A DNA stretch of 64,000 nucleotides, taken from the NCBI GenBank assembly GCA_016183005.1, contig JACPFN010000008.1, forward strand, positions 11,016 through 75,015, in the 5' to 3' direction. The notes below the pieces were generated by a model. That model did not search any database, was not told the DNA's origin, and saw only the letters and a program-made list of their open reading frames with translations. Each line of letters begins with the position of its first letter. Position 1 is the stretch's first letter. The translations under genes were made by a program, and so were the position numbers. This DNA comes from Candidatus Babelota bacterium. GTDB taxonomy: Bacteria; Babelota; Babeliae; Babelales; Chromulinivoraceae. Below, one piece after another: positions 469-47,568 of this stretch.

Positions 469-1185
469 TTACTCATTCTTAAAATTACTCAATTGAAGAG
501 CAAAATTTGGAACAAGCAGTAGATCCAATCTTTGGAGTAATTCTTCCAGGCTACCAACTCCAAAAAATCTTTTTTTAACCCATGCCTTTTCCTGCATAAT
601 TCCTTTTTTACAACAGTAATCCCGATATATAAAACCAACATCTGACATTATGCTACATACTGCACCCTCATATTCTAAAGAAGGACAGATTTCTACCCTA
701 ACATATATCCCCATTTTTCTTAGCATATCAAGTCGACGATTTATTTCTTCTACAAGCCTAGAAGGATTTTTATCTGCAATTATTTCTCGGTTTAGTGAAT
801 CTAGCAAAATTTCCGAAAAAGCAACTTTATTTTCAAAAACGTTTTTCAAAACTGCGTCACAATCTTCGCTTGCGCATTTAATTTTTTCAGCAAATATTTT
901 TTGCGCTTCAAGATCTCTTTTATTGCTTTCAGCCAACATTTTAAGAAAGCTTTGCTCTCTTTCAGCCAACGCTTCAAGATCTCTTTTCTCGCTTTCAGCA
1001 ATAAGTAATTGTCTTTCGCGATGTTTTGCTTCACATTGTTGTGCATAGCTTATCCCATCTATATGATCTAATCTTCTAAACGCGGAAGCTAAACTAGGAA
1101 CAAATTTACGCACAGTACTATCACTACAATAATTAGATATAAACAACGAAGAAAAAATAAAAAAATATGTCTTTTGAGATAACAT
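469..1185 (-). CDS. hypothetical protein with hydrophobic N-terminus and coiled-coil repeat
   Basis: 238-aa ORF. N-terminal hydrophobic stretch (YFFIFSSLFISNYC). Internal duplicated segment (AESEKRDLEALAERE / AESNKRDLEAQKIFAE). No family recognised. Confidence 0.55.
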   Translation of the reverse strand: MLSQKTYFFIFSSLFISNYCSDSTVRKFVPSLASAFRRLDHIDGISYAQQCEAKHRERQLLIAESEKRDLEALAEREQSFLKMLAESNKRDLEAQKIFAEKIKCASEDCDAVLKNVFENKVAFSEILLDSLNREIIADKNPSRLVEEINRRLDMLRKMGIYVRVEICPSLEYEGAVCSIMSDVGFIYRDYCCKKGIMQEKAWVKKRFFGVGSLEELLQRLDLLLVPNFALQLSNFKNE

Positions 1186-1260
1186 AAAGCCCCTATATAA
1201 TAAATCTATTTTAATTTTTTTCTAAAATATATTTAGCCCTTACAGCATCAAACTTAAAAT

Positions 1261-1304
1261 ACAATAAAAGTGGCAATCCAAGGTAGGGTTGCCACTTTTA
1301 TTGT
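1261..1304 (-). terminator. hairpin downstream of rpmF
   Basis: Perfect 16-bp inverted repeat acaataaaagtggcaa / ttgccacttttattgt with a 12-nt loop, about 16 nt after the rpmF stop. Confidence 0.6.
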
Positions 1305-1320
1305 ATTTTTATAATCTCGA

Positions 1321-1605
1321 TTAAGCTTCTTGAGAACCTTGTGCATGTTCAGCTTGAGCTGACTTCATCTTTGATTCTTGACGAGCTTGTGCTACTTGAG
1401 CTTTTTGGCTGCGCTTTGCACGACGATCTTCTTTAGTTTCAAGAACCTTTACGCCTTTGTAATATCCACTTACTAAGCAAACAGTATGAGGCATAATTGG
1501 TGTGCCACTATTTGGACACTTAGTAAATGTTTTTACCTCTAAACCTTTATTAGCTGATCTTGAATCACGACGAGATCGAGATGATTTACGTTTGGGACAT
1601 GGCAT
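1321..1605 (-). CDS. rpmF: 50S ribosomal protein L32 with a K/Q/A-rich C-terminal extension
   Basis: N-terminus MPCPKRKSSRSRRDSR matches the L32 signature (xVPKRKxSKSRRD). Small basic protein. Confidence 0.88.
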   Translation of the reverse strand: MPCPKRKSSRSRRDSRSANKGLEVKTFTKCPNSGTPIMPHTVCLVSGYYKGVKVLETKEDRRAKRSQKAQVAQARQESKMKSAQAEHAQGSQEA

Positions 1606-1705
1606 ACTAAATTCCTGATTGTTATAATATTTTTTAAAAATTTGAATATTGCATTACGATAATTACAGTGTACAAAAAAAAGGCCTAAAAAGCAAAAAAT
1701 TCTAT

Positions 1706-2143
1706 TCACCCATTCAAATAACCGAACTGACATTTTCCTTTTACCGGATATCCATCCTGCTGCCATGCAAATATTCCTCCATCAAGAACCTGTACATCGA
1801 CAAATCCAAGATTCTTAATGATTTCATAAGCATGTCGACTCAATGCACAATCTTTTCCAGCACAATAAATAATAATTTTTCTATTACGAGGCCACTTCTG
1901 ACTATTTTTTAACTTTTTATAAAGAATATGTATGGGAATATTAATAGAATTGACAATGGTACAATCTTGGCAAATATATCGAGGCAGAACATTAATTAAA
2001 TACCAACGAGATTCATCTTTATCCGACAAACAATCAATATGATCAGCCACCTCTTTACATGAAACGTACGACACAGAGGCATTATTAACCATAAAAATAG
2101 AGCTTGCTGCCAAAATTCCTAAAAATATTGCTTTAATTTTCAT
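1706..2143 (-). CDS. rhodanese-domain protein with signal peptide
   Basis: N-terminal signal MKIKAIFLGILAASSIFM. Rhodanese active-site region IIIYCAGKDCALSRHAYEIIKNLGF..VLDGGIFAW. Confidence 0.78.
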   Translation of the reverse strand: MKIKAIFLGILAASSIFMVNNASVSYVSCKEVADHIDCLSDKDESRWYLINVLPRYICQDCTIVNSINIPIHILYKKLKNSQKWPRNRKIIIYCAGKDCALSRHAYEIIKNLGFVDVQVLDGGIFAWQQDGYPVKGKCQFGYLNG

Positions 2144-2212
2144 ACTCCCCCTCGCTTCTTATAAATTTATGCCCCATGCTATCAAAAAAAAAATAACAAG
2201 CTCAAGAATTAC

Positions 2213-3364
2213 TCATCTTAAAGACCAAAAACCCATACTATCCTGCATAACAAGGCCCTCAAGGCTTAAAGAAAAGAGTAAATTTTGAACGGCTACCAAA
2301 TCTATATCAACTTTTTGCATTATATGATCCGCAGACATTGGCCTAATCAATATATCAAGAATTAACCGCTCTAAAGATCCCTGTTGATACCGTGTAGGTA
2401 CAATATGATCAGAGATTTTCTGAGAAAACATAGTTAATTGCTCATTATTTTTTATAGATTCACCAACACCTGAACACAATAATCCAAATCCAGCCAAAAT
2501 ATCCTCTGAACTAGCGACTAATTGAGCTCCCTGCTTAATCAGTTCATGACAACCAGCGCTTAATGGATCAAACAATGATCCAGGAACAGCAAAAACTTCT
2601 CGTCCCTGATCAAGAGCTTGCTGTGCGGTTATCAATGCACCACTTTTTAGTGCTGCTTGCACAACAAGACATCCCAAAGATAAACCAGAAATAATTCTGT
2701 TACGTATCGGAAATGTCGTAAGATCCGGCTTTCTGCCCATAGGAAAACAACTAACAATCAAACTATTTTCATATAAAATTCTCTCAAAAAGATCTTTATT
2801 GGTTGGAGGATATTGATGACAAAGTCCTGATCCAACTACCACAATTGTTGATTTCTTAAGATTTAAAGCAAGCTCATGAGCATATCGATCGGCACCAATT
2901 GCACCTCCACTAACAACTATCCAGCCTTCCTGTATCATCGGACCAACTATTTGCGCAAGAGCATCTTTAGTATATAAACGCGCCTTACGAGCCCCCACGC
3001 ACGCAATCATTTTGTCATGCTTCAAAAGAGCTACATTACCCTGACAATACAAAATAACCGGTGGCACATGAATTTCAGACAAAAGTCTACTATATTCAAA
3101 GCACCAATATGTTACTATTTCAACCTGATGCTTTTCAATTAAATCAAGCTCTTGCTCAAGCAAGAGCTTATCAGCAAGCCCATTAACTAAAATTTGAGAC
3201 TTGCTTTCAGAAAAACCTAAAGATATAAAATCTGCAACTGAATATCCATACAAATTCTGTAAATTTTGTAAGCCAACTAAGTCAACAAGCTTTAATATAA
3301 GCAACGGTCCAATGTTAGAAATAAGATTAAGATGTAAAATGATTGATTTGAAATTAGTGTTCAT
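2213..3364 (-). CDS. dprA: DNA processing protein DprA (Smf)
   Basis: DprA core motifs GARKARLYTKDAL, VVSGGAIGADRYAHELAL and PIRNRIISGLS. 383 aa. Confidence 0.88.
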   Translation of the reverse strand: MNTNFKSIILHLNLISNIGPLLILKLVDLVGLQNLQNLYGYSVADFISLGFSESKSQILVNGLADKLLLEQELDLIEKHQVEIVTYWCFEYSRLLSEIHVPPVILYCQGNVALLKHDKMIACVGARKARLYTKDALAQIVGPMIQEGWIVVSGGAIGADRYAHELALNLKKSTIVVVGSGLCHQYPPTNKDLFERILYENSLIVSCFPMGRKPDLTTFPIRNRIISGLSLGCLVVQAALKSGALITAQQALDQGREVFAVPGSLFDPLSAGCHELIKQGAQLVASSEDILAGFGLLCSGVGESIKNNEQLTMFSQKISDHIVPTRYQQGSLERLILDILIRPMSADHIMQKVDIDLVAVQNLLFSLSLEGLVMQDSMGFWSLR

Positions 3365-3552
3365 AAGTAATTCATATGTATATAGATAAAAAAGAGAAAC
3401 ATGAATACACTTCTCTTTTTTACCTAAATAATTCTATATAATATTAAGTATTGTTAATAAAAAATCAGTTTTTCCACATGAAAAGCAATGGAATAACTAA
3501 ATTAAAAATGTAACAAAATTAATACAAATCTAAATTCTAGTTCTCGTTATTT

Positions 3553-4317
3553 TTAATCTCTTGTTGTTTTATCTACATTAGAAAATTGTAATCGCGCTTC
3601 TGCAATCTCTTTTTCTGTAGGATATAGTTTATTCGATTGATCTATATTATCAGAATCAACAACGGTAATCTTAATTATATTACCATTATTTAAAACATGT
3701 GTTCCATATTCACCATTCTTGATTTTTTTTCTAATCTCTTGATCAAGCTCCTCTGGATCCATAGTACCATTCTGCAACTTAACTAAGGTGAAACCGATAC
3801 ATTTTTGTACATCATCATTAGACGGTAAAGAGATCTTATCTGCTCGATTCATAAAAAATATATTTTGCCGAGAATCTTTATTTTTAGGATATTGAACAAA
3901 ACAGATTTTTCCTTCTTCTAATTCTCGACCCATATTTCTAAGATGCTCTATCAACTCTTCTGAAAGAAACTCTTTTGCTGCATTAATTCTATCAATAACT
4001 ATATTTTCATATGCGGCAGATACATAAGAAGCAAAACTATTTTCTTTTTTGTTAAAATCGTAAAATTCTACGCCAAATCCCAATTTACAGCCTAACTGCA
4101 AAAATCTATACCTCAGACAACCTAAATAAGATAATTTATGATTCGGCTTGCTTGCTAAATATCCAACATAAAACAGATTTGGACCAGAACCAACATTTTT
4201 TGATGTCCATGACTTAATGAATGAATGCTTCTCAAAAAGTCCGTAACTTTCCTTCTCTTCTTCAGCTATTACACTCAAGAAATTAAATACTAAAAATATT
4301 CTCAATGTTTTTTTCAT
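3553..4317 (-). CDS. hypothetical secreted protein
   Basis: 254-aa ORF with N-terminal signal-like MKKTLRIFLVFNFLSVIA. No family recognised. Confidence 0.55.
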   Translation of the reverse strand: MKKTLRIFLVFNFLSVIAEEEKESYGLFEKHSFIKSWTSKNVGSGPNLFYVGYLASKPNHKLSYLGCLRYRFLQLGCKLGFGVEFYDFNKKENSFASYVSAAYENIVIDRINAAKEFLSEELIEHLRNMGRELEEGKICFVQYPKNKDSRQNIFFMNRADKISLPSNDDVQKCIGFTLVKLQNGTMDPEELDQEIRKKIKNGEYGTHVLNNGNIIKITVVDSDNIDQSNKLYPTEKEIAEARLQFSNVDKTTRD

Positions 4318-4336
4318 AATGAACCCCTACAATTTT

Positions 4337-4371
4337 AAAAAAGAGCAGCATTTACGATGCCACTCTTTTTT
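4337..4371 (-). terminator. imperfect hairpin plus T-run downstream of gyrA
   Basis: aaaaaagagcagcat / atgccactctttttt inverted repeat with a 2-nt internal mismatch, flanked by A and T runs, about 22 nt after the gyrA stop. Confidence 0.4.
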
Positions 4372-4392
4372 ATCTACATATATCTTTTAATT

Positions 4393-6818
4393 TTATTCCT
4401 GTACGTCACCCGATTCAAAATCTCCGGCGCTGTCACCACCTTGAGAGCTTATAGCTTCTTCAAAGTTTACCTCAAATGCTACAACCGATGACAACTCTTG
4501 ATCTGAATCAAGTCTGATAAGACGAACGCCTTGCGCCTGACGGCCCATAGTGCGAACCTCTTTAGGCGAAATTCTAATAATTTTTCCTGTTTTATCAATC
4601 AAAAGTATCTCAGAATTTTCACCAACTTTTACAAGACCAATCACATCACCGTTACGATCCCCGGTTGGAATTGTTCTAACACCCACTCCACCGCGATGAG
4701 CAACACGAAAATCTTCAATTTTTGTTCGTTTACCATATCCACGAGCTGTTGCAAATAATAAATCACGATCATCAGAAATAACTTCCATTCCTACAACTTC
4801 ATCACCCTTACGTAGACGAATTCCTCTAACGCCCGCAGCTTGACGCCCCATAGAGCGAACTTCTGGCGCCTGGAACCGAATACCCTGACCAAGCTTAGTT
4901 GCAATGACAACGGAATCCGCATCGGCACAAACAGCACAGAATACTAATTGATCACCATCATTAAGACCCAATGCTCGAATACCGGTACAACGAATCTTAA
5001 TAAAGCTTTGACCCAAAGTACGTTTTACGCTTCCATCTTTTGTTACCATAATGATATACTTGTCAGCTATATTTGCAGAATCAAGAAGCTTTACTATGTA
5101 TTCACCATCCTGAAGTGGAAGCAAATTAACAAGTGCACGACCTTTTGCTATTCGAGAACCCTCTGGAATCTCATATACCTTCATACAATATACGCGACCG
5201 AAGTTTGAAAAGAAGAGTAAATCGCCATGTGTTGTTGTAACAAATAGATCTTGCACAATGTCATCTGAATCATCAAGTGACGTCATGCCCATTTTGCCCT
5301 TACCGCCACGATGTTGCACTTCATATGTTTTCAAGGTTACGCGCTTAATATAACCCTTACGAGTCAATGTTACGACAACATCCTCTTCTGGAACTAAATC
5401 TAGATCAGAAAGAATATTAATCGGCCCTTCAATGCGTGTACGACGTACATCTGCATACTCATTTTTTATGTTCTGCAACTCTCTGACAATCTCTTTATCA
5501 AGAGCTGTTGCATCATCAAGAATAATTTGAAGCTGAGAAATTAAAGATTTAACCTCTTTCATCTCTTCTTGAATTTTTGCCTGTTCTAAACCAGTCAAGC
5601 GCTGAAGTCTCATCTCCAAAATCGCTTTTGCCTGAGCCTCAGAGAGCATATATTTTTCATTAAGCTTTACTATTGCCTCTTCAGCAGACTGAGACTTTTT
5701 AATCAATTCAATAATTGGATCAATATTATCCAACGCAATTAAAAGCCCAGCAAGAATATGTTCTCTTGCACGAGCTTTAGATAAATCATACTCGGTACGC
5801 TTGTAAATAATTGTACGACGATGAACCAAAAATTCATCAAGCATACGACGCAATGTAAATATTGTTGGTTTATTATCAAGAAGCGCCAACATCAAAATAG
5901 AAACCGTTGTCTGAAGCGATGTATATTTATACAATTGATTTAATGTGACACTTGGAATTTCTCCCTTTTTAAGCTCAAATACAAGACGCATGCCCTTTTT
6001 ATCAGATTCATCTCTAATATTAGAAATTCCCTCAACAACTTTTTCTTTAACTAAATCGGCAATACGAATAATAAGCTCAGACTTATTAACCATATAAGGA
6101 AGCTGCTTGACCACAAGCTGTGTTCCGCGCTTTCCTTCTTCCTCTTCGATGACTGCGCGCAAGATTAAACTACCGCGGCCTGTTTGATATGCCTTCACAA
6201 TTCCTGCACGACCACGGCATCAATAACTTCACCCAAGTTATGTGGTGGAATAGAAGTTGCCATACCCACAGCAATACCCGTAGTACCATTTACCAATAAA
6301 TTTGGAACTTTAGTCGGAAGAAGTATCGGCTCAATAGTTGATTCATCAAAGTTTGGTACAAAATCTACCGTATCTTTTCCCAAGTCAGCCAAAAGCTCTG
6401 AACTGATCTTGGTCATCTTTACCTCAGTATAACGCATTGCCGCTGCGTTATCACCATCCACAGACCCCCAGTTTCCTTGTCCATCAAGCAATGGATAACG
6501 CTTTGCAAAATCCTGAACCATGCCAACCATGGTATTATACACAGCTTGATCTCCGTGCGGATGAAAACGCCCAAGCACTTCACCAACTACACGAACAGAT
6601 TTATGATAAGGTTTATTATGAAAAAAACCAAGCGTATACATAGTATAAATAATTCTACGATGTACCGGCTTAAGTCCATCACGAACGTCAGGAATTGCTC
6701 GTGATACCACAACAGACATTGCATAATCAAGGAAGGAGGACTTTAACTCATCTTCAATTAATACCGGATATACAGAATTTTTTTTAAGATCTTGATTTGA
6801 ATTGGTATCAGAGCTCAT
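4393..6818 (-). pseudogene. gyrA: DNA gyrase subunit A, disrupted by an internal deletion plus frame change near 6196-6222
   Basis: ORF 6818-6195 has [18 protein letters not shown] and the catalytic AAMRYTE, ending [20 protein letters not shown] 6198-4393 continues with (GRAGIV)KAYQTGRGS...QLPYMVNK...EGISNIRDESDK and the C-terminal beta-pinwheel repeats. The conserved ..LM..I.GPDFPT.. segment between them is absent and the frames differ. Confidence 0.85.
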
Positions 6819-6995
6819 TAATATCCTTAAAACATTTCTAAATTTTCTAAAATAAAATGATTTTTAGATTAAAATAATTTTAATCTACTTGTATGTTTAT
6901 ATAGCTTCAAAATTTTGTCAATTTGAGTAAAAAACACTTAATTTAGTATAACACAAATAGTTAAAAAATAACAATAAAGGTAGCAAGATTCAAAC

Positions 6996-7030
6996 AAAAA
7001 GATCTGCTCAAATTTAAGCAGATCTTTTTT
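6996..7030 (-). terminator. rho-independent terminator downstream of grpE
   Basis: 13-bp inverted repeat aaaaagatctgct / agcagatcttttt with an 8-nt loop and T-run (minus-strand sense), about 20 nt after the grpE stop. Confidence 0.65.
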
Positions 7031-7048
7031 AAGAATTTATCTAAAAAT

Positions 7049-7564
7049 TTATAAAGCGACGGAAACCTTTGCTGGCCTTAAAACTTTATCTTTGAGCATA
7101 AACCCCTTTGATAAAAACTGTACAATTTCACCGGATGAATGATCTTGAGATTCAACTTGCATTACAGCTTCATGAAACTCTGGATTAAACTCTTTAATTT
7201 CAGTCATTGCCTTAACATCATTCTTAGCAAGAATCTTTAAAACTGATTGATACAGCATATCAAGAGCAACTTTGTCGATATTAGGCTGCGTACGTGCAAC
7301 TTCAAATGCATCAACAAACGATAAAAGGTCATATAAAATAGATTCTTTTGCTACATCAGCCCAACGACCCTGTTCTCTTTCTGTTCTTTTTTTAAAGTTT
7401 TCAAAATCAGCAGAAATTCTTTTGCATTGATCTTTCCACAAAGAAAGCTCGGTCAGGCACATATCTATCTCATTTTTATTATTACCATGTTCCACCCCGG
7501 AAGCATTATTTTCTTGATCTTGATTTTCTGGTAAATTATCTAATTCTTCATGCTCAAAATTCAT
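7049..7564 (-). CDS. grpE: nucleotide exchange factor GrpE
   Basis: Acidic N-terminus, then WKDQCKRISADFENFKKRTEREQ (GrpE coiled-coil signature) and C-terminal GFMLKDKVLRPAKV. Confidence 0.88.
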   Translation of the reverse strand: MNFEHEELDNLPENQDQENNASGVEHGNNKNEIDMCLTELSLWKDQCKRISADFENFKKRTEREQGRWADVAKESILYDLLSFVDAFEVARTQPNIDKVALDMLYQSVLKILAKNDVKAMTEIKEFNPEFHEAVMQVESQDHSSGEIVQFLSKGFMLKDKVLRPAKVSVAL

Positions 7565-7911
7565 AAATATACTTTCTTCTGTTACAAAATGTACGCTTTA
7601 TATGATAATGATATCATAAAAATTCATTACACAAAAGATTCAAATTCAGCTGTATAATAAACAAAAAGTTAATAAGCTTAAAGCTTGCGCAACCAACAAT
7701 AATCCTAAGCTACATCTTGACGTGATTATCTATTTGACTAATATTGTGCTACTGAGTCACGTACTCAAACTCAAGCTAACGCTATAAACAATAAAATAAA
7801 TTACAATCAACAAATACTATTTAAATTAAATGCTTACAATTCTATTTTGTTGATTCTTTTATTTTATAGGTACATGAAATATAAATTTTAAAATTGAAAA
7901 CTATAAAAACT

Positions 7912-9144
7912 ATGAAAATTATAAATTATATCGCGCCCATTATAACATTGTTTCTTATCATACCTCATCAAACTCTTAGTATGTACACAACATTTTTTAG
8001 ACCTACTTTCTGGCTAGAAAAACCGAGATTTGATCGCAGAAATATGACCTCTTATGAATTAAGTCCATATTATGCTTGGGCAGATAAGTCATTTGATAAA
8101 AACGGCGAAAAAGTCCCTCTTTTAGCATTTGCAAATCCAGAACCATTACTACCAAGCTTTCTTGAACCAATCAAAAATTGTGCTTATAATTCACGAAAAA
8201 ATGATGAATCTCCAATAGGATATGCTATTTTCGATGCGAAATATGTAACCACGGTAATAACTAATGAAATTATCCAAAATTTTCATGAAAACTTTTTTGT
8301 TCAGATCAACATTCCTCTAGGTCTTGATACCTTAAAAAATATTTCTATTACCCCAACTAATAAAGCAGGGGTCGCCATAGAACACAATGAGGAAATTGAT
8401 ACATACCTTGATGCATTATCATCCAAGCTTTTTGAATCTAAAAATAGAAATATACAATATTCACCATTTATTGGACCATCATTCATACTTTTTGGATTTA
8501 CTAAAAGTTTTACCCATTTTACTCGTTTAGATTTATTAGATTTTGAATTTAAAACTGGTCTAGTATTACCAGATCATAGTTTAGATAAAGAATCAGATTT
8601 TTTGCTATTACCACGTACAAACTTAAATAATTACGGAATACCGTTTCAATTAAAATGCATGATAGGAATATACGATTGGCTTAATTTTGGGGTTTCAGCA
8701 ACAACCGTTCTTCATATTAAAAAGGATTCTATATATAAAATTAATCAACAGCCATACCCAAACATGCTCATAATTCCTACCAAAAAAATGGCCAGCATGC
8801 TACATTATCCATTTTTAGCATTTACAACATATATCGAGGGTGAAAACTTCCTTCCTCACTGGACATGGCACGTTGGATTGAATTTCATAAAACAACTCAA
8901 AACTGTTTTTGAAATTTGCGGAGGAAGCGCTGAAGAAAATCGCATAGCAAACCAATTTCCAAGTCAATTACCATGGGAACAGATCTCTATAACTCTTTCA
9001 TCCGAATTTGATATCTTTTCGCAAGAAGGACGAATTATGCCTAAAATTAGAATTACTTACGCCAACCGCTTATTTGGTAAAAATTGTTTTGATTCATCCC
9101 TTGTTTCAGGACACCTCGGTTTTGACGTTTTATATGATTTCTAA
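7912..9144 (+). CDS. hypothetical secreted protein, possibly an outer-membrane beta-barrel
   Basis: The track ORF starts at TTG 7894; ATG 7912 (MKIINYIAPIITLFLIIPHQTLS) is the likelier start. Signal-like N-terminus and a C-terminus ending in an aromatic residue (GFDVLYDF), typical of OMPs. No family recognised. Confidence 0.55.
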   Translation: MKIINYIAPIITLFLIIPHQTLSMYTTFFRPTFWLEKPRFDRRNMTSYELSPYYAWADKSFDKNGEKVPLLAFANPEPLLPSFLEPIKNCAYNSRKNDESPIGYAIFDAKYVTTVITNEIIQNFHENFFVQINIPLGLDTLKNISITPTNKAGVAIEHNEEIDTYLDALSSKLFESKNRNIQYSPFIGPSFILFGFTKSFTHFTRLDLLDFEFKTGLVLPDHSLDKESDFLLLPRTNLNNYGIPFQLKCMIGIYDWLNFGVSATTVLHIKKDSIYKINQQPYPNMLIIPTKKMASMLHYPFLAFTTYIEGENFLPHWTWHVGLNFIKQLKTVFEICGGSAEENRIANQFPSQLPWEQISITLSSEFDIFSQEGRIMPKIRITYANRLFGKNCFDSSLVSGHLGFDVLYDF

Positions 9145-9596
9145 TTTTCCAGTACGTTGCGCAGTTCATGTAAAGAATCAATATTTTTTCTAATTAAATC
9201 AGAATTAGACTCTGATGAACTACCCTCAAGCTTTTGAATCATTTGATCAATGCGATCAATAAGTCCCTGTAAAAAATCACGCTCATCAGTATGAATCTCA
9301 TTAAGACCCGATTTTGAATTTCTTAAATCATATAAACTATGCAAATCATCTATTTTCTGTAAAGATTTTGTAAGCATATCACTACCTTCATATTCTTTTG
9401 ATACACCCATCTGTTCAATATCTTCTTGCAGTAACAATAATCCTTCATGTAAAAGCTCGCCAAGGCTCAATGGAGCACGAAATTGCGTAACAATAGGATT
9501 AGATAATACAAAATTATGCATGCCACAGAATAAAGAAAAAATAAAAAACATATCTCTAAAATGCTTGCTCAAAAAAGCATTTGAACGTATCTTCAT
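9141..9596 (-). CDS. hypothetical protein with N-terminal hydrophobic segment
   Basis: ORF 9141-9617; the ATG at 9596 (MKIRSNAFLSKHFRDMFFIFSLFCGM) is the likely start. Its stop overlaps the stop of the convergent gene by 4 nt. Confidence 0.5.
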   Translation of the reverse strand: MKIRSNAFLSKHFRDMFFIFSLFCGMHNFVLSNPIVTQFRAPLSLGELLHEGLLLLQEDIEQMGVSKEYEGSDMLTKSLQKIDDLHSLYDLRNSKSGLNEIHTDERDFLQGLIDRIDQMIQKLEGSSSESNSDLIRKNIDSLHELRNVLEN

Positions 9597-9754
9597 AAAA
9601 CCTCCATTTTGCCCCATTACGTCAAATAGGGCATAATTTTATTATCATAATAAAGTTTTTTCTCCAAAAAAGTCAATAGTTACTTAAGGTATCAAGCTAC
9701 ATGATAAATTTATAAATCTGATGAAACATAAGCTTTTGTTAGCTAAAATCCAAC

Positions 9755-9788
9755 AAAAAAAGCCCCGATTTACATCGAGGCTCTTTTT
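9755..9788 (-). terminator. hairpin plus T-run downstream of ssb
   Basis: agccccgat / atcgaggct inverted repeat (one mismatch) flanked by an A-run and a T-run, about 13 nt after the ssb stop. Confidence 0.5.
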
Positions 9789-9800
9789 AAAATCTATTTC

Positions 9801-10376
9801 TTAGAATGGCAACTCTTCTTCAAACGGTGGCTCATCTTTAAATTCAGGAACTATTTGAGTTTCGCCAAGCTCTTTTTTACTGCCAACAGCTACTTTTTTT
9901 GCAGCTTGTTTTTTAGCAACTGCTTGCTCAATCTTTGCAAACTCTGGAGTGTTTTGAGTTGTATATGACGCAGCTGACATAGATGACTGCATAGAATCAT
10001 GCATATCACCACCAACATTATCGGTAGCATCAAGACCAGCCTGCGAGTTATTTGCTAAAAACACCACGCGATCAGCCGCAATACTATGCTTACTTCTATT
10101 TGCACCCTGAGCATCTTGCCAAGTATCAAGCTTTAAGCGTCCTTCAACTAAAACAGCTCTTCCCTTAGCCAAATACTGGCGACAAGTTTCAGCTTGAGGA
10201 CCCCAAACATCTACATCTACATAACAAACTTCTTGTACAAGCATCCCCGTTTGGCGATTTTTAAATGATCTATTGGAAGCAATTGATAAGCGGCATACTT
10301 GGCCGTTACCCAACTGTTTATAGTCAGGATCTTTTGTTAAATTTCCCACCATTATAATTCTATTGTATCCAGCCAT
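9801..10376 (-). CDS. ssb: single-stranded DNA-binding protein
   Basis: MAGYNRIIMVGNLTKDPDYK OB-fold N-terminus, a disordered middle, and an acidic C-terminal tip EEELPF (compare DDDIPF). Confidence 0.9.
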   Translation of the reverse strand: MAGYNRIIMVGNLTKDPDYKQLGNGQVCRLSIASNRSFKNRQTGMLVQEVCYVDVDVWGPQAETCRQYLAKGRAVLVEGRLKLDTWQDAQGANRSKHSIAADRVVFLANNSQAGLDATDNVGGDMHDSMQSSMSAASYTTQNTPEFAKIEQAVAKKQAAKKVAVGSKKELGETQIVPEFKDEPPFEEELPF

Positions 10377-10533
10377 GACTGTGTTCCTTGAAAAAAAAAT
10401 CGATTAATTTAGTACTTTGTATACCATACGTTTTTTTAGCAATTCTGTACAGTTGCTACAAAAAAATTAATTTTTAAAATATTGTTTTTTTTCTTTGAAA
10501 GATTTTATCTTAATAAAAAAAAGGAGATTAAAA

Positions 10534-10911
10534 ATGACTCATCAAAAACCAAGCAACCTTTCACAGGCACATACTATTAGCGCACAAGAGCTTAAAAATA
10601 AGCTGGATACTCAACCAGATATGATTGTAATAAATGTTTTAAATCAAGAAACCTATGTCGACTGCCACATTACTGGATCAATTAATATCCCACTCAACCA
10701 ACTATTAGAAACCATTGCAAGCTGGGACAAAGATAAAGATATCGTTGTTTACTGTGCACAAAATAGTTGCAACGCTAGCGACAAAGCGTTGCAATTATTA
10801 CAAGAAATGGGTTTTTTACATGTATTTTTATATCAAGGCGGAATGAAGGATTGGTTCAAAAAAAACTTTGATACCACAGGAACCTGCACTATGAAATATT
10901 TACATGAATAG
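10534..10911 (+). CDS. rhodanese-domain protein (cytoplasmic paralog)
   Basis: ATG 10534 is preceded by aaggag (the track ORF begins earlier at 10495). VVYCAQNSCNASDKALQLLQEMGF..YQGGMKDW rhodanese active-site region. Confidence 0.78.
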   Translation: MTHQKPSNLSQAHTISAQELKNKLDTQPDMIVINVLNQETYVDCHITGSINIPLNQLLETIASWDKDKDIVVYCAQNSCNASDKALQLLQEMGFLHVFLYQGGMKDWFKKNFDTTGTCTMKYLHE

Positions 10912-10949
10912 GCGTATATTTATTAAATATGCAAATTAATCCTCAATGA

Positions 10950-11483
10950 CTAAAGATTACATACAATTTTAGCATACCTTACCAATAACCATACAGAAAG
11001 CAGTAAATTACCAATCAGCAATACTGAAAAAAATCGAAAACCAACTTCACCAAAAAGAATTAAACTAATAAATAAAAATAATATCAGAAATATCTCTGCT
11101 AGACTTGCAGCACGGGACAATCTACTTGGCTGAATAAAAAAATTATATCGCAGCTTCAAAAATGCACCACCCGAAAGTAAAATTACTTCTTTGAAGAGCA
11201 AACATAGAACTAAAATCTCGTGCCATAGACCAGCCGCAACACTCATCAAAAGAGCGTACAGAGTAGCCATAATCAAGCATTTGTCGGCAACTGGATCCAA
11301 AAGTTGTCCTAAATCACTTTGCTGCTGAAATCGACGAGCAACAAATCCATCAACCAGATCTGTCAGCGCTGCGATAACAAATAGAATAAGAGCAATATCC
11401 CACTGCCCTTGGCGAATATACCATACAACTACGGGAGTAAAAACTATACGAACCATTGTAATGCAAGATGCAATCGTTAACAT
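10950..11483 (-). CDS. pgsA: CDP-alcohol phosphatidyltransferase (PgsA-like)
   Basis: D-x2-DG-x2-AR...G-x3-D-x3-D motif seen as DLVDGFVARRFQQQSDLGQLLDPVADK. Multi-TM protein. ATG 11483 (MLTIASCITMVRIVFTP) is preferred over TTG 11528. Confidence 0.8.
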   Translation of the reverse strand: MLTIASCITMVRIVFTPVVVWYIRQGQWDIALILFVIAALTDLVDGFVARRFQQQSDLGQLLDPVADKCLIMATLYALLMSVAAGLWHEILVLCLLFKEVILLSGGAFLKLRYNFFIQPSRLSRAASLAEIFLILFLFISLILFGEVGFRFFSVLLIGNLLLSVWLLVRYAKIVCNL

Positions 11484-11756
11484 AAATATTCCAAAATAAT
11501 TTATAAATATCACATAAAGTATGGCCAAGGCCTAAAAACTTGTGATATTCAAGTAAAGTAGAATAAATTATAAGACAAGATGCATGATATGACAACATAG
11601 ATTAACCAAAGAGCTTTTAACTAAGATTAAAAACTGATGACAGAAAAATCTTGCAGATCTAGCTAAAACACCAAAAAAACTAACCATAATCTTCTTGGTT
11701 CGAATACTTTACCCATAGTTTAAAAATATAAGAAAAAACAAAAGAGAGCAAAAAAT

Positions 11757-11788
11757 AAAGGGCCATGGAAAAATCTCCAAAGCCCTTT
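11757..11788 (-). terminator. hairpin downstream of the 11813-12328 gene
   Basis: aaagggc / gcccttt stem with an 18-nt loop, followed on the minus strand by a T-rich run. Confidence 0.4.
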
Positions 11789-11812
11789 TATAATTATAAA
11801 TTATAATGATAC

Positions 11813-12328
11813 TTATTTCTTGCTAGAAAATGCATCAACTGCACGACGAGCAGCCTCAATAAGCACATATGTTGCTACTACTTTTGCTGCTAAAGGAACA
11901 ACCTTAACCGTTACTCCACCGTCTACACCAACTGTTGATAAATCGACTGAAACTTGAGTGTTTAATAACTTTCCAACAACTGAAGTAGGTGCTACTGTTG
12001 TATCTACAGCAGTAGCCGCTCTATTCAAAGCTGCTTTTACCGGTGGCACGGTAGCTAAATCATTCACACTTAACGCATCTGCTTGATCTTTCAAAAAAGA
12101 ACGTCTTTGATTTTGCGCATATGCCACTAAATCTGTCTGATTACGATAAAATTCTATTGCTCTAGGGAATCTAATTAATTTGCTTGATGCATAATCAACT
12201 ACGGCAACCGCCCCAAGAAACTGCCCCTTTTCATTAAGTGGACACTGTTTTGATATCCAGCTTGATGCAAATACTGGAACTGCAAAAAAAGCTACAAAAA
12301 CTGCTAAAGATATATGATTTTTTACCAC
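11813..12328 (-). CDS. hypothetical secreted protein
   Basis: 171-aa ORF with GTG start, signal-like ISLAVFVAFFAVPVFASS and an Ala/Val-rich C-terminal half. Confidence 0.55.
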   Translation of the reverse strand: MVKNHISLAVFVAFFAVPVFASSWISKQCPLNEKGQFLGAVAVVDYASSKLIRFPRAIEFYRNQTDLVAYAQNQRRSFLKDQADALSVNDLATVPPVKAALNRAATAVDTTVAPTSVVGKLLNTQVSVDLSTVGVDGGVTVKVVPLAAKVVATYVLIEAARRAVDAFSSKK

Positions 12329-17794: not shown

Positions 17795-19108
17795 CTAGCT
17801 AGGATTAATTATCACCTCTCCACCTCGTCGTGTTAACAATGTGGAAACTTGATAATTTCTTAATTTATTAATATCGCCTCGTTCTTCTGTTAAATATCGT
17901 TGAAAATCTTGTTGATCTTTTCCAGTTAATAATTTTAGCATGCCAGATATACCCTCTATACTTATCTGTGTTTTTACCTCACTCGTTTTAGAGCCTTTAT
18001 ATAAACTCCAAAATTTGGATATTACATCTTGGGGTATACGATCTTTACTATGCTTACGTTCATCATTCTCGCCGCGAGTTTTTATAAATGACCAACCATG
18101 AGCTATAACATCCCACAATGTTCCAATTCCATGTGGTTCCCACTTTATAAAAACATAACCATTTTTACGCTGATCAAAAAGCAAATGCGGAGCATTTAAC
18201 GGCAATCCAAGCTCGCCATTTGACACATCAATATCAAGACCAATATTCTTGCCCTCAGTGCCTCCTTTAAAATGGCTCGATGTACGCTTATAAGCTTTAG
18301 TATTCCAAGATTTCCAAAATGATTCATAATTAGGATTAACAAGGCGTGCATAATTTTTAAGAAAATTAAATAAATTACCCTCACTATCTTTAAATGTTAT
18401 AGTACCACCTTCAAATGCTCGACGATCTTCAAGGATTGATAATTTATAAAAATACCACTGCAATTTAATAATAACTTTTTGATATGCTTGCATAAATTTT
18501 TTAAATATTTCAGAATCAAGGCCAGATGCTATACCCGTCTCAAAGGCTTTAATTAAATTTTGGTTATTTTCTGTATTATTAGGTAACAAAATATTTGGAA
18601 AAATTTGATTAAATATTTTATCGTTATTCCCAGCTGTATGCGAAATATTTTTTTTAAGAATTTCCCAAAGCATCTCACCTTCTTGCATATACTTTAAAGC
18701 TGTATCAATATTTTCAGGTTGTTTATTTTTTGGTAAACTTACTAATTGACTCTCAAGGAAATCTTCTTGATCTTTATCTTCTCTTCTTTCTTGTATTTCT
18801 TTATCTAAATCTAAATCATACATAGTATCTGACATAACAACTGGCTCTGGATTATCTTCTGGATTGGGCACCGTGCTTTTTTTGCTAAAAACATTTTTAC
18901 CCCACTTCACAGCTTTATCACGTAAATCTCTTAAGTGGTCTATCCAGGATTTATTCTGTGCTTCAATTTGTTTAATTTGTTCAATTTTATTTTTAAAATT
19001 TAAGTTATCAATATCCCTATGCAGACCCATATAGGCAGTTCCTTCAAAAGGAGAAAAAACTACTTTTGAAATCGAAACTAAAAAAAATAAAATATTTTTT
19101 TTCATCAT
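17795..19108 (-). CDS. hypothetical secreted protein
   Basis: 437-aa ORF with signal MMKKNILFFLVSISKVVFS. No family recognised. Confidence 0.6.
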   Translation of the reverse strand: MMKKNILFFLVSISKVVFSPFEGTAYMGLHRDIDNLNFKNKIEQIKQIEAQNKSWIDHLRDLRDKAVKWGKNVFSKKSTVPNPEDNPEPVVMSDTMYDLDLDKEIQERREDKDQEDFLESQLVSLPKNKQPENIDTALKYMQEGEMLWEILKKNISHTAGNNDKIFNQIFPNILLPNNTENNQNLIKAFETGIASGLDSEIFKKFMQAYQKVIIKLQWYFYKLSILEDRRAFEGGTITFKDSEGNLFNFLKNYARLVNPNYESFWKSWNTKAYKRTSSHFKGGTEGKNIGLDIDVSNGELGLPLNAPHLLFDQRKNGYVFIKWEPHGIGTLWDVIAHGWSFIKTRGENDERKHSKDRIPQDVISKFWSLYKGSKTSEVKTQISIEGISGMLKLLTGKDQQDFQRYLTEERGDINKLRNYQVSTLLTRRGGEVIINPS

Positions 19109-19126
19109 TACTCATTCTTTTTCAAG

Positions 19127-42058: not shown

Positions 42059-43777
42059 TTATTTAGCCTTTTTAATAGAATAGGCAAGCTCAAGAATACG
42101 CTGAACAAATACTGGATCAACTCTTCGATTATCACTTTCTGCGGGCAAGAATTTAGAAGATATTCCTAGTACTGATAACGGCTTAATTTCTAGATTACCT
42201 TTTTCTACGGGTAATACGCTCGAAGAAATTTCAGATACTGATAGCGGCTCAACTTTTAAAGTTTTTAAATTATTTTTTTCTGTTACCAATAATTTAGAAT
42301 ATATTCCAGATAATGCTTTTTTAAATTGTTCAACAATAGATAAGATATTTCCATCAAACTGTTCACGTGATTCAAAGCCTGTAACTATATCTTGAAGCTT
42401 ACTATTTATATTTTCATATCCTACAAAATCAAGATTTGGATTTGCAAAATCTTTCATCCATCTGTTTTGGTTCTGCTGTAATACTGTCAATTTAGTAGCA
42501 GAATTCTCTACAGTTTCAATGCTATTAAATGCCTTACGAATCATATCATTAATTTTTGGTTGAATATTTTGAGTAATTTCATTAAAAAATTCATCTGTAT
42601 ACTGTAAGCGATTTAAATTAATTCTGGCCATTAACTCTTTAAATAAGTTTTCTTGAACTTTTATAGCAGAACTACTCTCTTGAATATTCTTTAAAAGAGT
42701 CTCTATCCTTTTATATAGATTTGTTGCTTTACTATCTTTCTGCACTATCTCTCTTTTTATTTTTGCTAATTGAGCGATCTGTTCTTTTTTAAAATCTTCT
42801 TCTTCTTGCTTAGGAGCCTTCTCAGCTTCTTCCGATGCTCTTTTTACTTGTAATTCTTTTTGTTTACGAACCTTTTCAGCTTCTTCCAATGCTTTTTTTG
42901 CTTGTAATTCTTTAACTTCTAGCTCTCGCACTTTTTTATTAAGCTCTTGCTCTCGTTGCTCTTTTCGTTTCATAATTGCATCAAAATCTACTAGTACAGT
43001 TTCTGAATTTATTCCTTTTGTTTTTTCTTGTTTTTGCAAAGCTAAATATTTTTCTTCTTGTTTTGTTTTATCTTCTAATTCTTGTGTCCTTTGTAACTTT
43101 TGTTCTATTTTTTGTAATACGGTACTTGCTGTTGCTTCTACTTTTTTACTTTTTTGTTCTTCTGTTTGAGCTGTTGCTAATGCTAAAGCAGCTGCATTTT
43201 CTCTTTCTGATTCATTTAATCCTTTTCCTTCCCCCTTTTCTGCCTGTGATTTTTGTGAAATTATAGTTAATCGTTCATTCATTCTTTGCATGTTATCCAA
43301 TACATCCTTATCCCTTGTTTTAATCCTTTGCAATGATTCATTTATTGTTGCTATAGCTTTATCTATGGTAACCGTATCATCTGAAAAAAAGATCTCATAA
43401 GCACTTTCCCATTCAATTAAAGCATTTTTTATAATTTCTATCTGAGATTCTATTACTTTTGAATCACTAGCCACTTTCGTTTTCTCTTTATTAAGCAGTT
43501 GGACTATTATTATATTTGTGGAATTATCTTTTAACTTTGCAGCAATATTTGCCATTGAATCTGCTAAATCTTTTTTCACTTTATCGAAATACTTATTTAA
43601 TGTTGCCCGAACATCTTTAACATTATTTTTATTTTCTTTATCAACCTTGATTGAATAATGTGGTATATCGATATACACGATATTCTTTTGAAAAGATGCT
43701 GCAAAATTAGTACTTGAATATACTAATCCCAAACTCATTACACCGACAGAAAATAGATATAATCTTTTATACATCAT
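42059..43777 (-). CDS. signal-peptide coiled-coil protein, paralog family member 1
   Basis: MMYKRLYLFSVGVMSLGLVYS signal. Long K/E/Q-rich helical core with an internal 54-nt tandem duplication. C-terminal RILELAYSIKKAK motif shared with members 2-4. Confidence 0.7.
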   Translation of the reverse strand: MMYKRLYLFSVGVMSLGLVYSSTNFAASFQKNIVYIDIPHYSIKVDKENKNNVKDVRATLNKYFDKVKKDLADSMANIAAKLKDNSTNIIIVQLLNKEKTKVASDSKVIESQIEIIKNALIEWESAYEIFFSDDTVTIDKAIATINESLQRIKTRDKDVLDNMQRMNERLTIISQKSQAEKGEGKGLNESERENAAALALATAQTEEQKSKKVEATASTVLQKIEQKLQRTQELEDKTKQEEKYLALQKQEKTKGINSETVLVDFDAIMKRKEQREQELNKKVRELEVKELQAKKALEEAEKVRKQKELQVKRASEEAEKAPKQEEEDFKKEQIAQLAKIKREIVQKDSKATNLYKRIETLLKNIQESSSAIKVQENLFKELMARINLNRLQYTDEFFNEITQNIQPKINDMIRKAFNSIETVENSATKLTVLQQNQNRWMKDFANPNLDFVGYENINSKLQDIVTGFESREQFDGNILSIVEQFKKALSGIYSKLLVTEKNNLKTLKVEPLSVSEISSSVLPVEKGNLEIKPLSVLGISSKFLPAESDNRRVDPVFVQRILELAYSIKKAK

Positions 43778-43850
43778 CCTTCATTCTCCTTTTTTAAAAT
43801 TAAATAAGACGATTTTTCATTAGGATACATTTAATATTTTCAAAAAATCA

Positions 43851-43911
43851 ATAAGAAGAGAGAAAGCTTCCTGTTTAGTTTATAGCAGCAAAAAGCTTTC
43901 TCTCTTCTTAT
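43851..43911 (-). terminator. hairpin between family members 2 and 1
   Basis: Perfect 19-bp inverted repeat ataagaagagagaaagctt / aagctttctctcttcttat. Confidence 0.55.
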
Positions 43912-44081
43912 TCTGATTCAAATTGATTAATCATCGAATGGGAATATTTACCTAATCGATGCTCTATTCACAAAGGCTACAGCTCGATTAAAAAACGCAC
44001 ACGGTTTTAATGACGGCTTGGTTTCTTAACGACAACAAAAAGATTTAAAACGCGTGCAACTTTATCCTCTTTTTCTTGCAT

Positions 44082-45722
44082 TTAAGCACGCTTTCTATTG
44101 TCGCGTATCATAGCCTTTCTATCTTTTTCTAATTTAACTACATGAAAAAGCTCAAGTACACGATCAACTGCCTTAAGATCAATTGATAAACTATCATCTT
44201 TTTTCATAAGTAACCCTTGAAGTAATCGTGATATTTTTTCTCTATTTTTTTGTATCAATGTTAATATGTCATTAAAATGATTATGCTCAGAAAAAAAGGA
44301 GTTTGCTAAATAATCCATTCTTCCATCTATTTTTTCAATATCATTAGGATTAGAAATATCTTCTATAAAATCATTTTCCATACGAGATCTTTCTCGATAT
44401 AGACTGATTAAATGATCCAAGCTTATTTTTGCTTGAGAAAAAAGATCAAAAAAGTTTCGTACATCTACCTTTACATCTTCTGATACAGAAGGTAATTTAT
44501 TCAATGTAATATTTAACCCTGTCCAATACTTTACTTGTCCATCTAAAACAGCTTTAGACGTTTCTATGATCTCTTTTAAAGGATCTAATTTTCCTATTTT
44601 AGCTTGGATCTTAGCATCTATCGCAGCATTTTTATCGAATAATGCTACTGTATTCACAAAATTATCTTTGATTTTTTTTATGGCATTATAATTATCATAA
44701 ATTTCTTTCAAATTACTATTAATTAGTACAACATTATCGACATTAACCTTATCAAGAATCTTTCTTGTTTGCTCAATATCACCTATTATTTTATTTGCAA
44801 AATGATAAGCAGCATCTTGATCATTAATTAATTTTTTCTTCTGAACAGAAAGATTTCTTTTAAACTGTTCTGAATTATATTTAAATTTAGCAGAGGTAGA
44901 TAAAGTTAAATATTGAGATTTTCTTATATATTCTTGCATATTGTTTCCAATCTCAAATATGAGATTTTCTTGCTGTTCTCCTACCTCAGTTAGATATTGC
45001 TTGACCAAATTTTGCAAATCGCTCAATTCCTGTTGATTTTTAATATCAGCTATAAATGCTTTTTTATCTGGTATATGTATGCTTACCATGCTGGATGTAG
45101 CAGGGACATCAACAGTATCTGATTTTTTTGTATCTAATATCTCTGTGCTTTCAAAATTTTTTAATACTTTTTGAACTTCATCTTTAATAGATTTTAGCAA
45201 ATCGTACTCTTTTTTAATTTTCTGCAAACTGTCATTAATCTTAATTACAGCAGCTTTTATTTTTTCTTCATTATTTTTGCCAATCACCTTTAATTCTCGG
45301 TCCCAATCATCTAAAGCCATATCTGTCTGCTCAATCTGATCTTTTACTTTTTGACGTATAGATAAAATTGCTTTCTGATCATCCTCAAACATTTTTTTAT
45401 CTCTGCTTAAATTATCTTGAAGCTCTTTTGTATTGCTCGATAATATTACAGATCCAACGGTATCGTTATATGATGCAATATCCGTAGTTATACTTGCTAT
45501 TAATAAACCAAGACCATCTTTGACTTCTTTTAAATAGCTTGCTACTGAATATATTGCTCCATCATTTTCTGAATTGTTTTGCATAGAAAATTTAAGTGGG
45601 TTTTTATCAGGAACATTTATAACAGCATATCCCACCTCAACTTCACCCACAAAACTACCAGGATATACTGCTTGCCAACTCATAATAGAAATCAAAAGCA
45701 AGTGCAATCTTTTATCTATCAT
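44082..45722 (-). CDS. signal-peptide coiled-coil protein, paralog family member 2
   Basis: ATG 45722 (MIDKRLHLLLISIMSWQAVYPGSFVGEVE..YAVINVPDKNP) is preceded by aaaagggagaa; the track start TTG 45746 is less likely. C-terminal VDRVLELFHVVKLEKDRK. Confidence 0.7.
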   Translation of the reverse strand: MIDKRLHLLLISIMSWQAVYPGSFVGEVEVGYAVINVPDKNPLKFSMQNNSENDGAIYSVASYLKEVKDGLGLLIASITTDIASYNDTVGSVILSSNTKELQDNLSRDKKMFEDDQKAILSIRQKVKDQIEQTDMALDDWDRELKVIGKNNEEKIKAAVIKINDSLQKIKKEYDLLKSIKDEVQKVLKNFESTEILDTKKSDTVDVPATSSMVSIHIPDKKAFIADIKNQQELSDLQNLVKQYLTEVGEQQENLIFEIGNNMQEYIRKSQYLTLSTSAKFKYNSEQFKRNLSVQKKKLINDQDAAYHFANKIIGDIEQTRKILDKVNVDNVVLINSNLKEIYDNYNAIKKIKDNFVNTVALFDKNAAIDAKIQAKIGKLDPLKEIIETSKAVLDGQVKYWTGLNITLNKLPSVSEDVKVDVRNFFDLFSQAKISLDHLISLYRERSRMENDFIEDISNPNDIEKIDGRMDYLANSFFSEHNHFNDILTLIQKNREKISRLLQGLLMKKDDSLSIDLKAVDRVLELFHVVKLEKDRKAMIRDNRKRA

Positions 45723-45748
45723 TTTTAATTCTCCCTTTTTGATCAAAC

Positions 45749-45777
45749 AGAATAACGTTTAATCAGACTACACTCAA
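45749..45777 (-). promoter_or_regulatory. candidate sigma70-type promoter of family member 2
   Basis: The minus strand reads TTGAGT - 17 nt - TATTCT about 27 nt upstream of the ATG. The same element is conserved upstream of members 3 and 4. Confidence 0.4.
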
Positions 45778-45799
45778 TATTTTAAAAAAATCAATACGT

Positions 45800-45848
45800 A
45801 TAAAGAAAGCTTCTTATTTGTTTTACAATAACAAGAAGCTTTCTTTAT
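45800..45848 (-). terminator. hairpin between family members 3 and 2
   Basis: ataaagaaagcttctt / aagaagctttctttat inverted repeat (16 bp), about 42 nt after the member 3 stop. Confidence 0.55.
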
Positions 45849-45889
45849 TTAATTCTGATTCAAGTCAATTAATTATCAAATAGTACTAT

Positions 45890-47401
45890 TTACCTATTTG
45901 ATTTTTTCTTTACAAAAACTAAACGACTCAATTCAAGAGTGCGCACAGCTTTAACAATTTTTTGATCCTTAACAGCAACAAAAAGATTTAAAACACGTGC
46001 AACCGCATCCTCTTTTGTTTGCATTTCAACACGTTTTCTAGCTTCGTCCTTCATATCCATTTTATTTTTTTCTAATTTAACTACATGAGAAAGTTCAAGT
46101 ACACGCCCTACTTCTGCAGGATAAATCTTGCGAAATTTTTGTTTTTCAATTAATAATGTTGTAAATAATTCTGATAATTCTCTTTGATATTTTTCAGCGT
46201 CTTTAAGTTTATTTGAAGAAGAATTAGATAATTGACCAAGAGTTAATACTATTTTTGAAATTTCATCATCCATCTTAGCTTTTTCTATAAGATTACTTGT
46301 CTCGCTAATTTTTTCTTCTAATGCTTTTTTATTTTTATTCGATTCTTTAATTTCAGTTAACACATTATCTATATCCGTAATAACTGAATTAAATCCTTTA
46401 AAAATACGATCTCTATCGGGTTTAAATTTATTACCAATATCTTGTATAAACTCAGCTGAATATCTTGAAGAATCAAACTCAATGTCTTTTAATAAATTAT
46501 CAATTCTTCCCAATAATCCTTCCATTAATTCTCTTAATTGAGCAATTTGTTGTATGTTTTGTGCTATATTTTCGTCAAATATTGTTGATCGTTTTTCATT
46601 AAGTTTGACACTTGCCTGTATTGCCACTTTCTCTGCTTCTTCTGCATTTCTTGCTGCTTTTTCTGCATCTTGCTGTGAAACTGTTGCCGCTTTTACCGTT
46701 GTCTTATTAGGGGCTACAGCTGCTGCTTTTTGCGCATCCGCTGCTACTTTTTCTGCTTTTTGCTTATCTGCTCTTGCTTTACGTGCTACTTCATCTGCTT
46801 TATCTTTTGCTGCTTCAGTATCAAATAATGTTATTGAGTTAGTAATGTCGTTCATAATCTTTTCTGCAGCGGTATACTCTTTTAAAATAACCAATAAGTT
46901 GCTATTTATGAAATCTACTTGTGATAATATTCTTCTTTCTTCATTGTGCAAAACTAGACTTAACACATGACCCCATTCTTCCAAAGAAGAATCTATATCA
47001 TTAATTTTTTTTTCAATGTTTTTTACATTAGTTAAAAATGCTACTTGATCATCATTAAATTTTTTTTCCTTTTTATTCGAACTATCGATAAAACCTTGCG
47101 TATAACTAGATTTATCATTATTTACGCGCACAAATTTAGCTAAATAAGATTCAACATCTTTAGCCATCTTTTTTTTAAATGAATCAAGGCTTTCTTTGAC
47201 ACTCTTTAAATATTTTTCTACAGAAGCCATTGCCTTATCATTTTCTCCATTTTTTTGCATATTAAAGCGTAATGGTTCTTTGCCAGGAATATTTATAACA
47301 GCATATCCTGCCGGCTCAACTTCACCCACAAAACTACCTGAATATACTGCTTGCCAACTCATAATAGAAATCAAAAGCAAGCGCAATCTTTTATCTGACA
47401 T
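45890..47401 (-). CDS. signal-peptide coiled-coil protein, paralog family member 3
   Basis: ATG 47401 (MSDKRLRLLLISIMSWQAVYSGSFVGEVE). Ala/Lys-rich centre. C-terminal half is nearly identical to member 4. Three copies of the (R)VLEL..V.K motif at the C-terminus. Confidence 0.72.
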   Translation of the reverse strand: MSDKRLRLLLISIMSWQAVYSGSFVGEVEPAGYAVINIPGKEPLRFNMQKNGENDKAMASVEKYLKSVKESLDSFKKKMAKDVESYLAKFVRVNNDKSSYTQGFIDSSNKKEKKFNDDQVAFLTNVKNIEKKINDIDSSLEEWGHVLSLVLHNEERRILSQVDFINSNLLVILKEYTAAEKIMNDITNSITLFDTEAAKDKADEVARKARADKQKAEKVAADAQKAAAVAPNKTTVKAATVSQQDAEKAARNAEEAEKVAIQASVKLNEKRSTIFDENIAQNIQQIAQLRELMEGLLGRIDNLLKDIEFDSSRYSAEFIQDIGNKFKPDRDRIFKGFNSVITDIDNVLTEIKESNKNKKALEEKISETSNLIEKAKMDDEISKIVLTLGQLSNSSSNKLKDAEKYQRELSELFTTLLIEKQKFRKIYPAEVGRVLELSHVVKLEKNKMDMKDEARKRVEMQTKEDAVARVLNLFVAVKDQKIVKAVRTLELSRLVFVKKKSNR

Positions 47402-47427
47402 TTTTAATTTTCCCTTTTTAATCAAAC

Positions 47428-47456
47428 AAAATAACGTTTAATCAGACTACACTCAA
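47428..47456 (-). promoter_or_regulatory. candidate sigma70-type promoter of family member 3
   Basis: The minus strand reads TTGAGT - 17 nt - TATTTT, followed by aaaagggaaaa and the ATG. Confidence 0.4.
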
Positions 47457-47478
47457 TATTTTAAAAAAATCAATACGT

Positions 47479-47527
47479 ATAAAGAAAGCTTCCTATTTGT
47501 TTTACAACAATAGGAAGCTTTCTTTAT
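47479..47527 (-). terminator. hairpin between family members 4 and 3
   Basis: Perfect 18-bp inverted repeat ataaagaaagcttcctat / ataggaagctttctttat. Confidence 0.55.
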
Positions 47528-47568
47528 TTAATTCTGATTCAAATCAATTAATTATCAAATAGTACTAC

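Follow-up and report, generated by a model that had tools for sequence, protein, structure and literature searches.

Is the gyrA gene of this bacterium broken in the organism, or only in its sequence record? The question is raised by the minus strand of the stretch of DNA analyzed here (64 kb, hereafter the window), where gyrA is written as two fragments in different frames, and it is sharpened by a second lesion in argS of the same window. Taken literally, the record describes a Dependentiae bacterium that lacks a normal gyrase A and arginyl-tRNA synthetase, or one that possesses a split gyrase, and either would be remarkable. The gyrA break is most likely not a real biological feature. The organism itself groups with the Dependentiae (Babeliales); its best match among species-representative genomes shows 81% identity, and several other Dependentiae show ~65%.

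As written in the record, gyrA extends from 6818 to 4393 on the minus strand in two pieces that are out of frame with each other, as determined from the list of open reading frames (ORFs) and their translations. The 5′ fragment (6195..6818, minus strand) is a 207-aa ORF that carries the catalytic AAMRYTE motif and ends with a stop at 6197–6195, while the frame of the 3′ fragment is open from 6219; both observations had been made in an earlier note based on the letters of the sequence, and both are borne out by translation and, for the 5′ ORF, by the ORF list. GyrA homology of the 5′ ORF spans 6818 to 6216 only. Its tail, VVVQEL (six sense codons, 6215–6198), and the stop that follows come from reading the 3′ part in the wrong frame. 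The 3′ fragment (4393..6215, minus strand) contains the remaining topoisomerase domain and a six-blade C-terminal domain, and the GyrA box (QHRGGKGK) is found in its translation. The 5′ and 3′ fragments are 97.5% and 93.4% identical to residues 1–203 and 233–838, respectively, of the relative P0001.

The identity of the gene is clear from its parts. The AAMRYTE motif, which contains the catalytic tyrosine and belongs to the winged-helix domain, is invariant across the alignment with relatives, and the C-terminal beta-pinwheel with the GyrA box, which separates GyrA from ParC, is present, with six DNA_gyraseA_C repeats (PF03989) recognized by Pfam in the C fragment. The DNA_topoisoIV domain (PF00521) is divided between two frames, with profile positions 1–164 in the N fragment and 197–432 in the C fragment, so that positions 165–196 are absent and the window gyrA has no complete, continuous domain of this type. 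Apart from the junction, the 2.4 kb of gyrA show no further stops or frameshifts of the sort expected under relaxed constraint, and no second gyrA or parC-like locus lies within the 64-kb window. At 6195–6198 (minus strand), the letters GTGA combine the TGA stop of the 5′ fragment with a GTG that opens a 601-aa 3′ ORF. This overlap resembles translational coupling but is a by-product of the frameshift.

The surroundings of the gene are conventional. The order grpE-gyrA-(short gene)-dprA is common to relatives that have an intact gyrA at that position. The gyrA neighbourhood is also flanked by two rhodanese-domain genes (1706–2143, minus strand, and 10495–10911, plus strand), both of which match the same region of a relative's locus (L001) by tblastn, and rhodanese genes occur at corresponding positions on relatives' contigs.

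What is missing from gyrA can be stated to the base. The earlier note had put the loss at about 27 codons and placed the junction within 6196–6222. A segment is indeed absent, but its size in DNA alignments with relatives is 91 nt, or 30 codons plus 1 nt, and the junction, within the interval given, falls at 6216|6215 (6215..6216, minus strand) by DNA alignment and exact string comparison with the contigs L084 and L085 described below. The minus-strand letters at the junction are GATGCC|GTGGTCG, and the absent segment encodes CLA...PAPDFPTGGII. In alignments with solved GyrA structures, 30 residues are skipped at precisely this point.

Relatives show how constant the segment is. The closest proteins in a large protein collection are 838-aa Babeliales GyrA sequences with 91% identity, and the 120 best relatives range from 714 to 923 aa, the 714-aa protein (P0087) covering 85% of the query and being encoded on a 2.7-kb contig. 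PDFP is found in all 120 of these best relatives, and the spacing from PPHN to TG[RKH]G is 48 residues in every one, versus 18 in the stitched window protein. Not one of these 120 proteins is naturally without the segment or interrupted at that site. The suggestion that intact orthologs might do without the segment is thereby contradicted, with 0 of 120 best relatives of this kind and the spacing constant throughout. As for the deletion allele itself, exact look-ups of both gyrA fragment products did not find it in other assemblies, and the 30-nt left flank of the gyrA junction had no match in JGI metagenome contigs, a collection from which the strain is absent.

The junction is bare. It has no filler, repeats or microhomology, and the bases that flank the two breakpoints differ from each other. 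A repeat- or microhomology-mediated deletion was considered and rejected: TGT codons stand at both edges of the segment in relatives, but they are 90 nt apart and do not match the junction. Programmed frameshifting, translational bypass, an intein and an intron were likewise rejected by inspection, as sequence is missing here rather than inserted, and no intein-like sequence was seen beside the junction.

The decisive comparison is with a set of six Logan contigs, L084–L089, that were independently assembled (k=31) from the public run SRR12113422, a run on which no literature was found. Exact look-up of neighbouring proteins led from GrpE, encoded directly upstream of gyrA, to L084 and from the protein encoded downstream to L085. 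L084 (6.2 kb) agrees with window 12319..6216 at every base. Past 6216, it adds 75 nt of the missing segment and then ends: TGTCTTGCAATTTTGAAAAATAAAAATATGACTGAGGATGAACTCTTTAAATATATTCCAGCACCAGATTTTCCA. This extension runs TGTCTTGCA...CCAGATTTTCCA and reads in frame as CLAILKNKNMTEDELFKYIPAPDFP, through ...IPAPDFP. According to the earlier note, an artefact would be marked by additional nucleotides that bring back a single frame and a GPDFPT-like segment, and this is essentially what L084 contains. On the other side, L085 opens with TGTGGTCGTG (in a longer reading, TGTGGTCGTGCAGG), 1 nt ahead of the right breakpoint, and matches window 6215..909 at 100% identity. The 75 nt of L084, 15 unassembled nt and the 1 nt of L085 sum to 91 nt, which is the length found in relatives.

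GyrA restored in this manner is 838 aa long, the same as in the relatives P0001 and P0002, and its PF00521 domain is continuous in the Logan contigs except for the 15 unassembled nt. Since those nt are left unassembled by Logan, continuity of the intact allele across them rests on the relatives. The lesion is not present in these independent data from the same lineage; contigs of SRR12113422 whose flanks are 100% identical to the window carry the segment. The locus is an ordinary gyrA, and its lack of continuity is confined to this record. The verdict that gyrA is broken accordingly holds for the sequence record and probably not for the organism, since the same-strain assembly has the segment. 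Of the causes that had been listed for the break, an assembly or consensus error is supported by same-strain contigs that agree with the window at 100% over 21.7 kb, and gene decay and a split gyrase are not, as the same strain carries the segment continuously.

A second lesion occurs on the plus strand in argS. Its 5′ part (20292..20846) is intact to ...NDAGAQITKLGI and contains Arg_tRNA_synt_N and positions 7–74 of tRNA-synt_1d (Pfam). Next come 32 nt of filler (20847..20878), CGGCCAATCTCGACCTGGTATTGTATCGTGGC, with a GC content of 56%, in place of 219 nt, and then a 3′ part (20879..21769) in a frame that differs from that of the 5′ part, with tRNA-synt_1d positions 152–298 and DALR_1 (Pfam). 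The letters at the junction include GGAATT|CGGCC. The earlier note had described argS as having the same kind of lesion as gyrA. That a lesion exists is correct, but comparison with L086 reveals something other than a plain deletion: 219 nt have been swapped for 32 unrelated nt, for a net change of -187 nt and a frameshift. L087 corresponds to window 18686–20833. L086 starts at window 20828, agrees to 20846, adds 219 nt, and rejoins the window at 20879. Bases 20–238 of L086 are absent from the window and the 32-nt filler is absent from L086, while bases 239–2584 of the contig are 100% identical to window 20879–23224. When L087 and L086 are joined by their 6-nt overlap, one open 554-aa ArgS results, with tRNA-synt_1d continuous over positions 7–298.

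No source of the filler was found. There is no second copy in the window within three mismatches, exact matches to either strand of the window or of the Logan contigs extend to 10 nt at most, consistent with chance, and no match was found in JGI metagenome contigs. Neither repeats nor microhomology exist at the argS junction, and the filler is without a source in the flanks. Its 56% GC places it in the top ~1% of 32-nt windows; composition alone is not decisive, because conserved genes here reach that value too. In the downstream frame, the filler reads without stops as ...SANLDLVLYRG before EWFSE.

Two further loci in the window were considered as split genes and rejected. At 26561–27119 (plus strand), rnpA, for the RNase P protein, shares 47 nt with a weakly yidD-like ORF that falls below the Pfam cut-off and is read in another frame. 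The two are separate, ordinary genes; with rpmH directly upstream in the Logan contig annotation, this is the usual rpmH-rnpA-yidD arrangement. The exbD/tonB-like overlap at 56527–57883 also consists of separate, ordinary genes. Elsewhere, four tandem paralogous genes of 501–572 aa occupy 42059–49074 (minus strand). Paralogues 2–4 have nearly identical N-terminal leaders (…KRLRLLLISIMSWQAV…), these other three are only 20–27% identical overall to the first, and the group is faced on the opposite strand by long ORFs rich in Ser, Ala and Cys. The only tRNA gene in the 64 kb is that for tRNA-Leu (anticodon TAG; 23870–23956, plus strand), located between frr and a trigger-factor-like gene.

The position of the two lesions relative to the Logan contigs is informative. 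Over 21.7 kb, L084–L089 and the window are 100% identical except at gyrA (6216|6215) and argS (20847–20878). These are local disagreements with an independent assembly between identical flanks, by which local assembly errors are recognized. Both lesions lie 0–20 nt from Logan contig ends, with a 15-nt gap between contigs at gyrA and a 6-nt overlap at argS. For comparison, a control break at 12294–12319 has a 26-nt overlap, and the window agrees with both contigs there. Window ORFs are continuous at the contig ends at 909 and 18686, and the end at 23224 is just within the start of an intact frr-like ORF (23218..23805). Three of the four lesion breakpoints are crossed by Logan contigs without branching, as L084 runs past the left gyrA breakpoint and L086 through both of those in argS. 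The contig ends near the lesions can be read as coverage gaps, and the short contigs with irregular overlaps suggest a very low depth of the organism in SRR12113422. We infer that the reads behind the window were those of this run or similarly shallow ones, and that some step of the pipeline made the wrong joins.

The gyrA and argS lesions are thus probably local assembly errors in a low-coverage metagenome-assembled genome, and we hold this explanation with good confidence. The source would be a genome of a Dependentiae (Babeliales) bacterium assembled from a metagenome in which it was sequenced at low depth, such that read coverage may have been nearly exhausted at one spot in gyrA and one in argS. 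At both spots, the assembler or a gap-closing or scaffolding step would have misjoined the flanks, with the loss of 91 nt in gyrA and the placement of 32 unsupported nt for 219 nt in argS. The misjoining could have come about through a chimeric read, during gap closing, or when scaffolds were joined and no gap characters were written between them. The organism itself would possess an ordinary, single 838-aa GyrA and a 554-aa ArgS. Since de Bruijn assemblers do not normally invent junctions, this explanation has to assume a chimeric read (at least one), a gap-closing step or the removal of gap characters. According to Chen et al. 2020 (Genome Res 30:315, PMC7111523), local assembly errors not supported by even a single read are common in genomes of this kind, and one 1.13-Mb genome contained 13 of them (PMC7111523).

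The alternative that fares best is that the deleted alleles are real and exist in part of the population, or in a near-identical co-occurring strain, with the window's assembler having taken the deleted versions and Logan the intact ones. A cell that carries deleted alleles would be a dead end unless intact copies of the genome, in that cell or in the same host, complemented it. The junctions are, after all, written in the window, for which assemblers usually need reads, and the intact and lesion versions are otherwise identical, as expected of very recent variants. All known Dependentiae live inside protist cells, as symbionts or parasites, a setting in which complementation can be imagined. 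It would have to be strong, however, if two essential genes that are single-copy and lie within 15 kb of each other had each acquired an independent null lesion. In addition, two alleles at usable depth should branch a k=31 graph at the breakpoints, yet L084 and L086 run past them, and the coincidence of the lesions with independent contig ends is predicted by an assembly cause but not by a biological one. Real alleles therefore appear unlikely. A specific form of the idea, in which deleted gyrA and argS alleles persist beside intact ones in polyploid or co-infecting intracellular Dependentiae, in a heteroplasmy-like state with the window representing the defective haplotype, is quite improbable.

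Fixed decay, in which gyrA is a pseudogene and its function is supplied by a second gyrA or a parC elsewhere in the genome, is highly improbable. The gene is certainly broken in the window, and the visible part of the genome amounts to 64 kb. Even so, the missing segment is present in the independent same-strain assembly, the gene has no other disabling mutation and encodes a protein 93–97% identical to that of its nearest relative, and it keeps its place in the grpE-gyrA-(short gene)-dprA order of relatives with an intact copy. An assembly error is favoured over a pseudogene because the segment is intact in the same strain, because there is no other decay, and because unrelated filler occurs in a second essential gene. 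Finally, a tolerated split gyrase, in which the 207-aa N fragment and a 601-aa C fragment (GTG start at 6198) assemble into a working GyrA, can be given almost no credence: the TGA stop/GTG overlap does have the geometry of translational coupling and translation could perhaps be coupled, but the two products together would be missing a 30-residue stretch whose length is constant, and in which PDFP occurs, in 120 of 120 best relatives, GRAGIV would be lost as well, no relative among those 120 is split, and the same strain has a continuous version.

If local assembly errors are the cause, the record holds at least two of them in 64 kb, and pseudogene counts or claims of essential-gene loss drawn from it would be inflated. 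More generally, comparing records with independent assemblies of public runs can reveal errors without read mapping.

Three known systems may be set beside these lesions. The first is the local assembly errors of Chen et al. 2020 (PMC7111523), which are similar in being short consensus errors that corrupt protein-coding genes and that occur without repeats. Such errors are frequent in low-coverage short-read assemblies and are exposed via reads or an independent assembly (PMC7111523). Unlike those cases, the evidence here comes not from the record's own reads but from a public run that was assembled independently with k=31. The second is bacterial GyrA (PF00521 plus PF03989; structures 4DDQ, 1AB4 and 6RKS), with which the window gene shares AAMRYTE, the topoisomerase domain, six blades and the GyrA box. 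The window record differs from it in lacking profile positions 165–196 and in its shifted frame, whereas the restored same-strain sequence shows no difference. The third is the pseudogenes of essential genes in endosymbionts. Like the window gyrA, they are housekeeping genes with an internal deletion and a frameshift, and in both cases the bacterium depends on a host and has a small, AT-rich genome. In contrast to such pseudogenes, the lesion here is not found in an independent same-strain assembly, has no added substitutions or frameshifts, and is accompanied by a nearby second essential gene that bears unrelated filler. Measured against endosymbiont pseudogenes, the pattern of the lesions points to an artefact.
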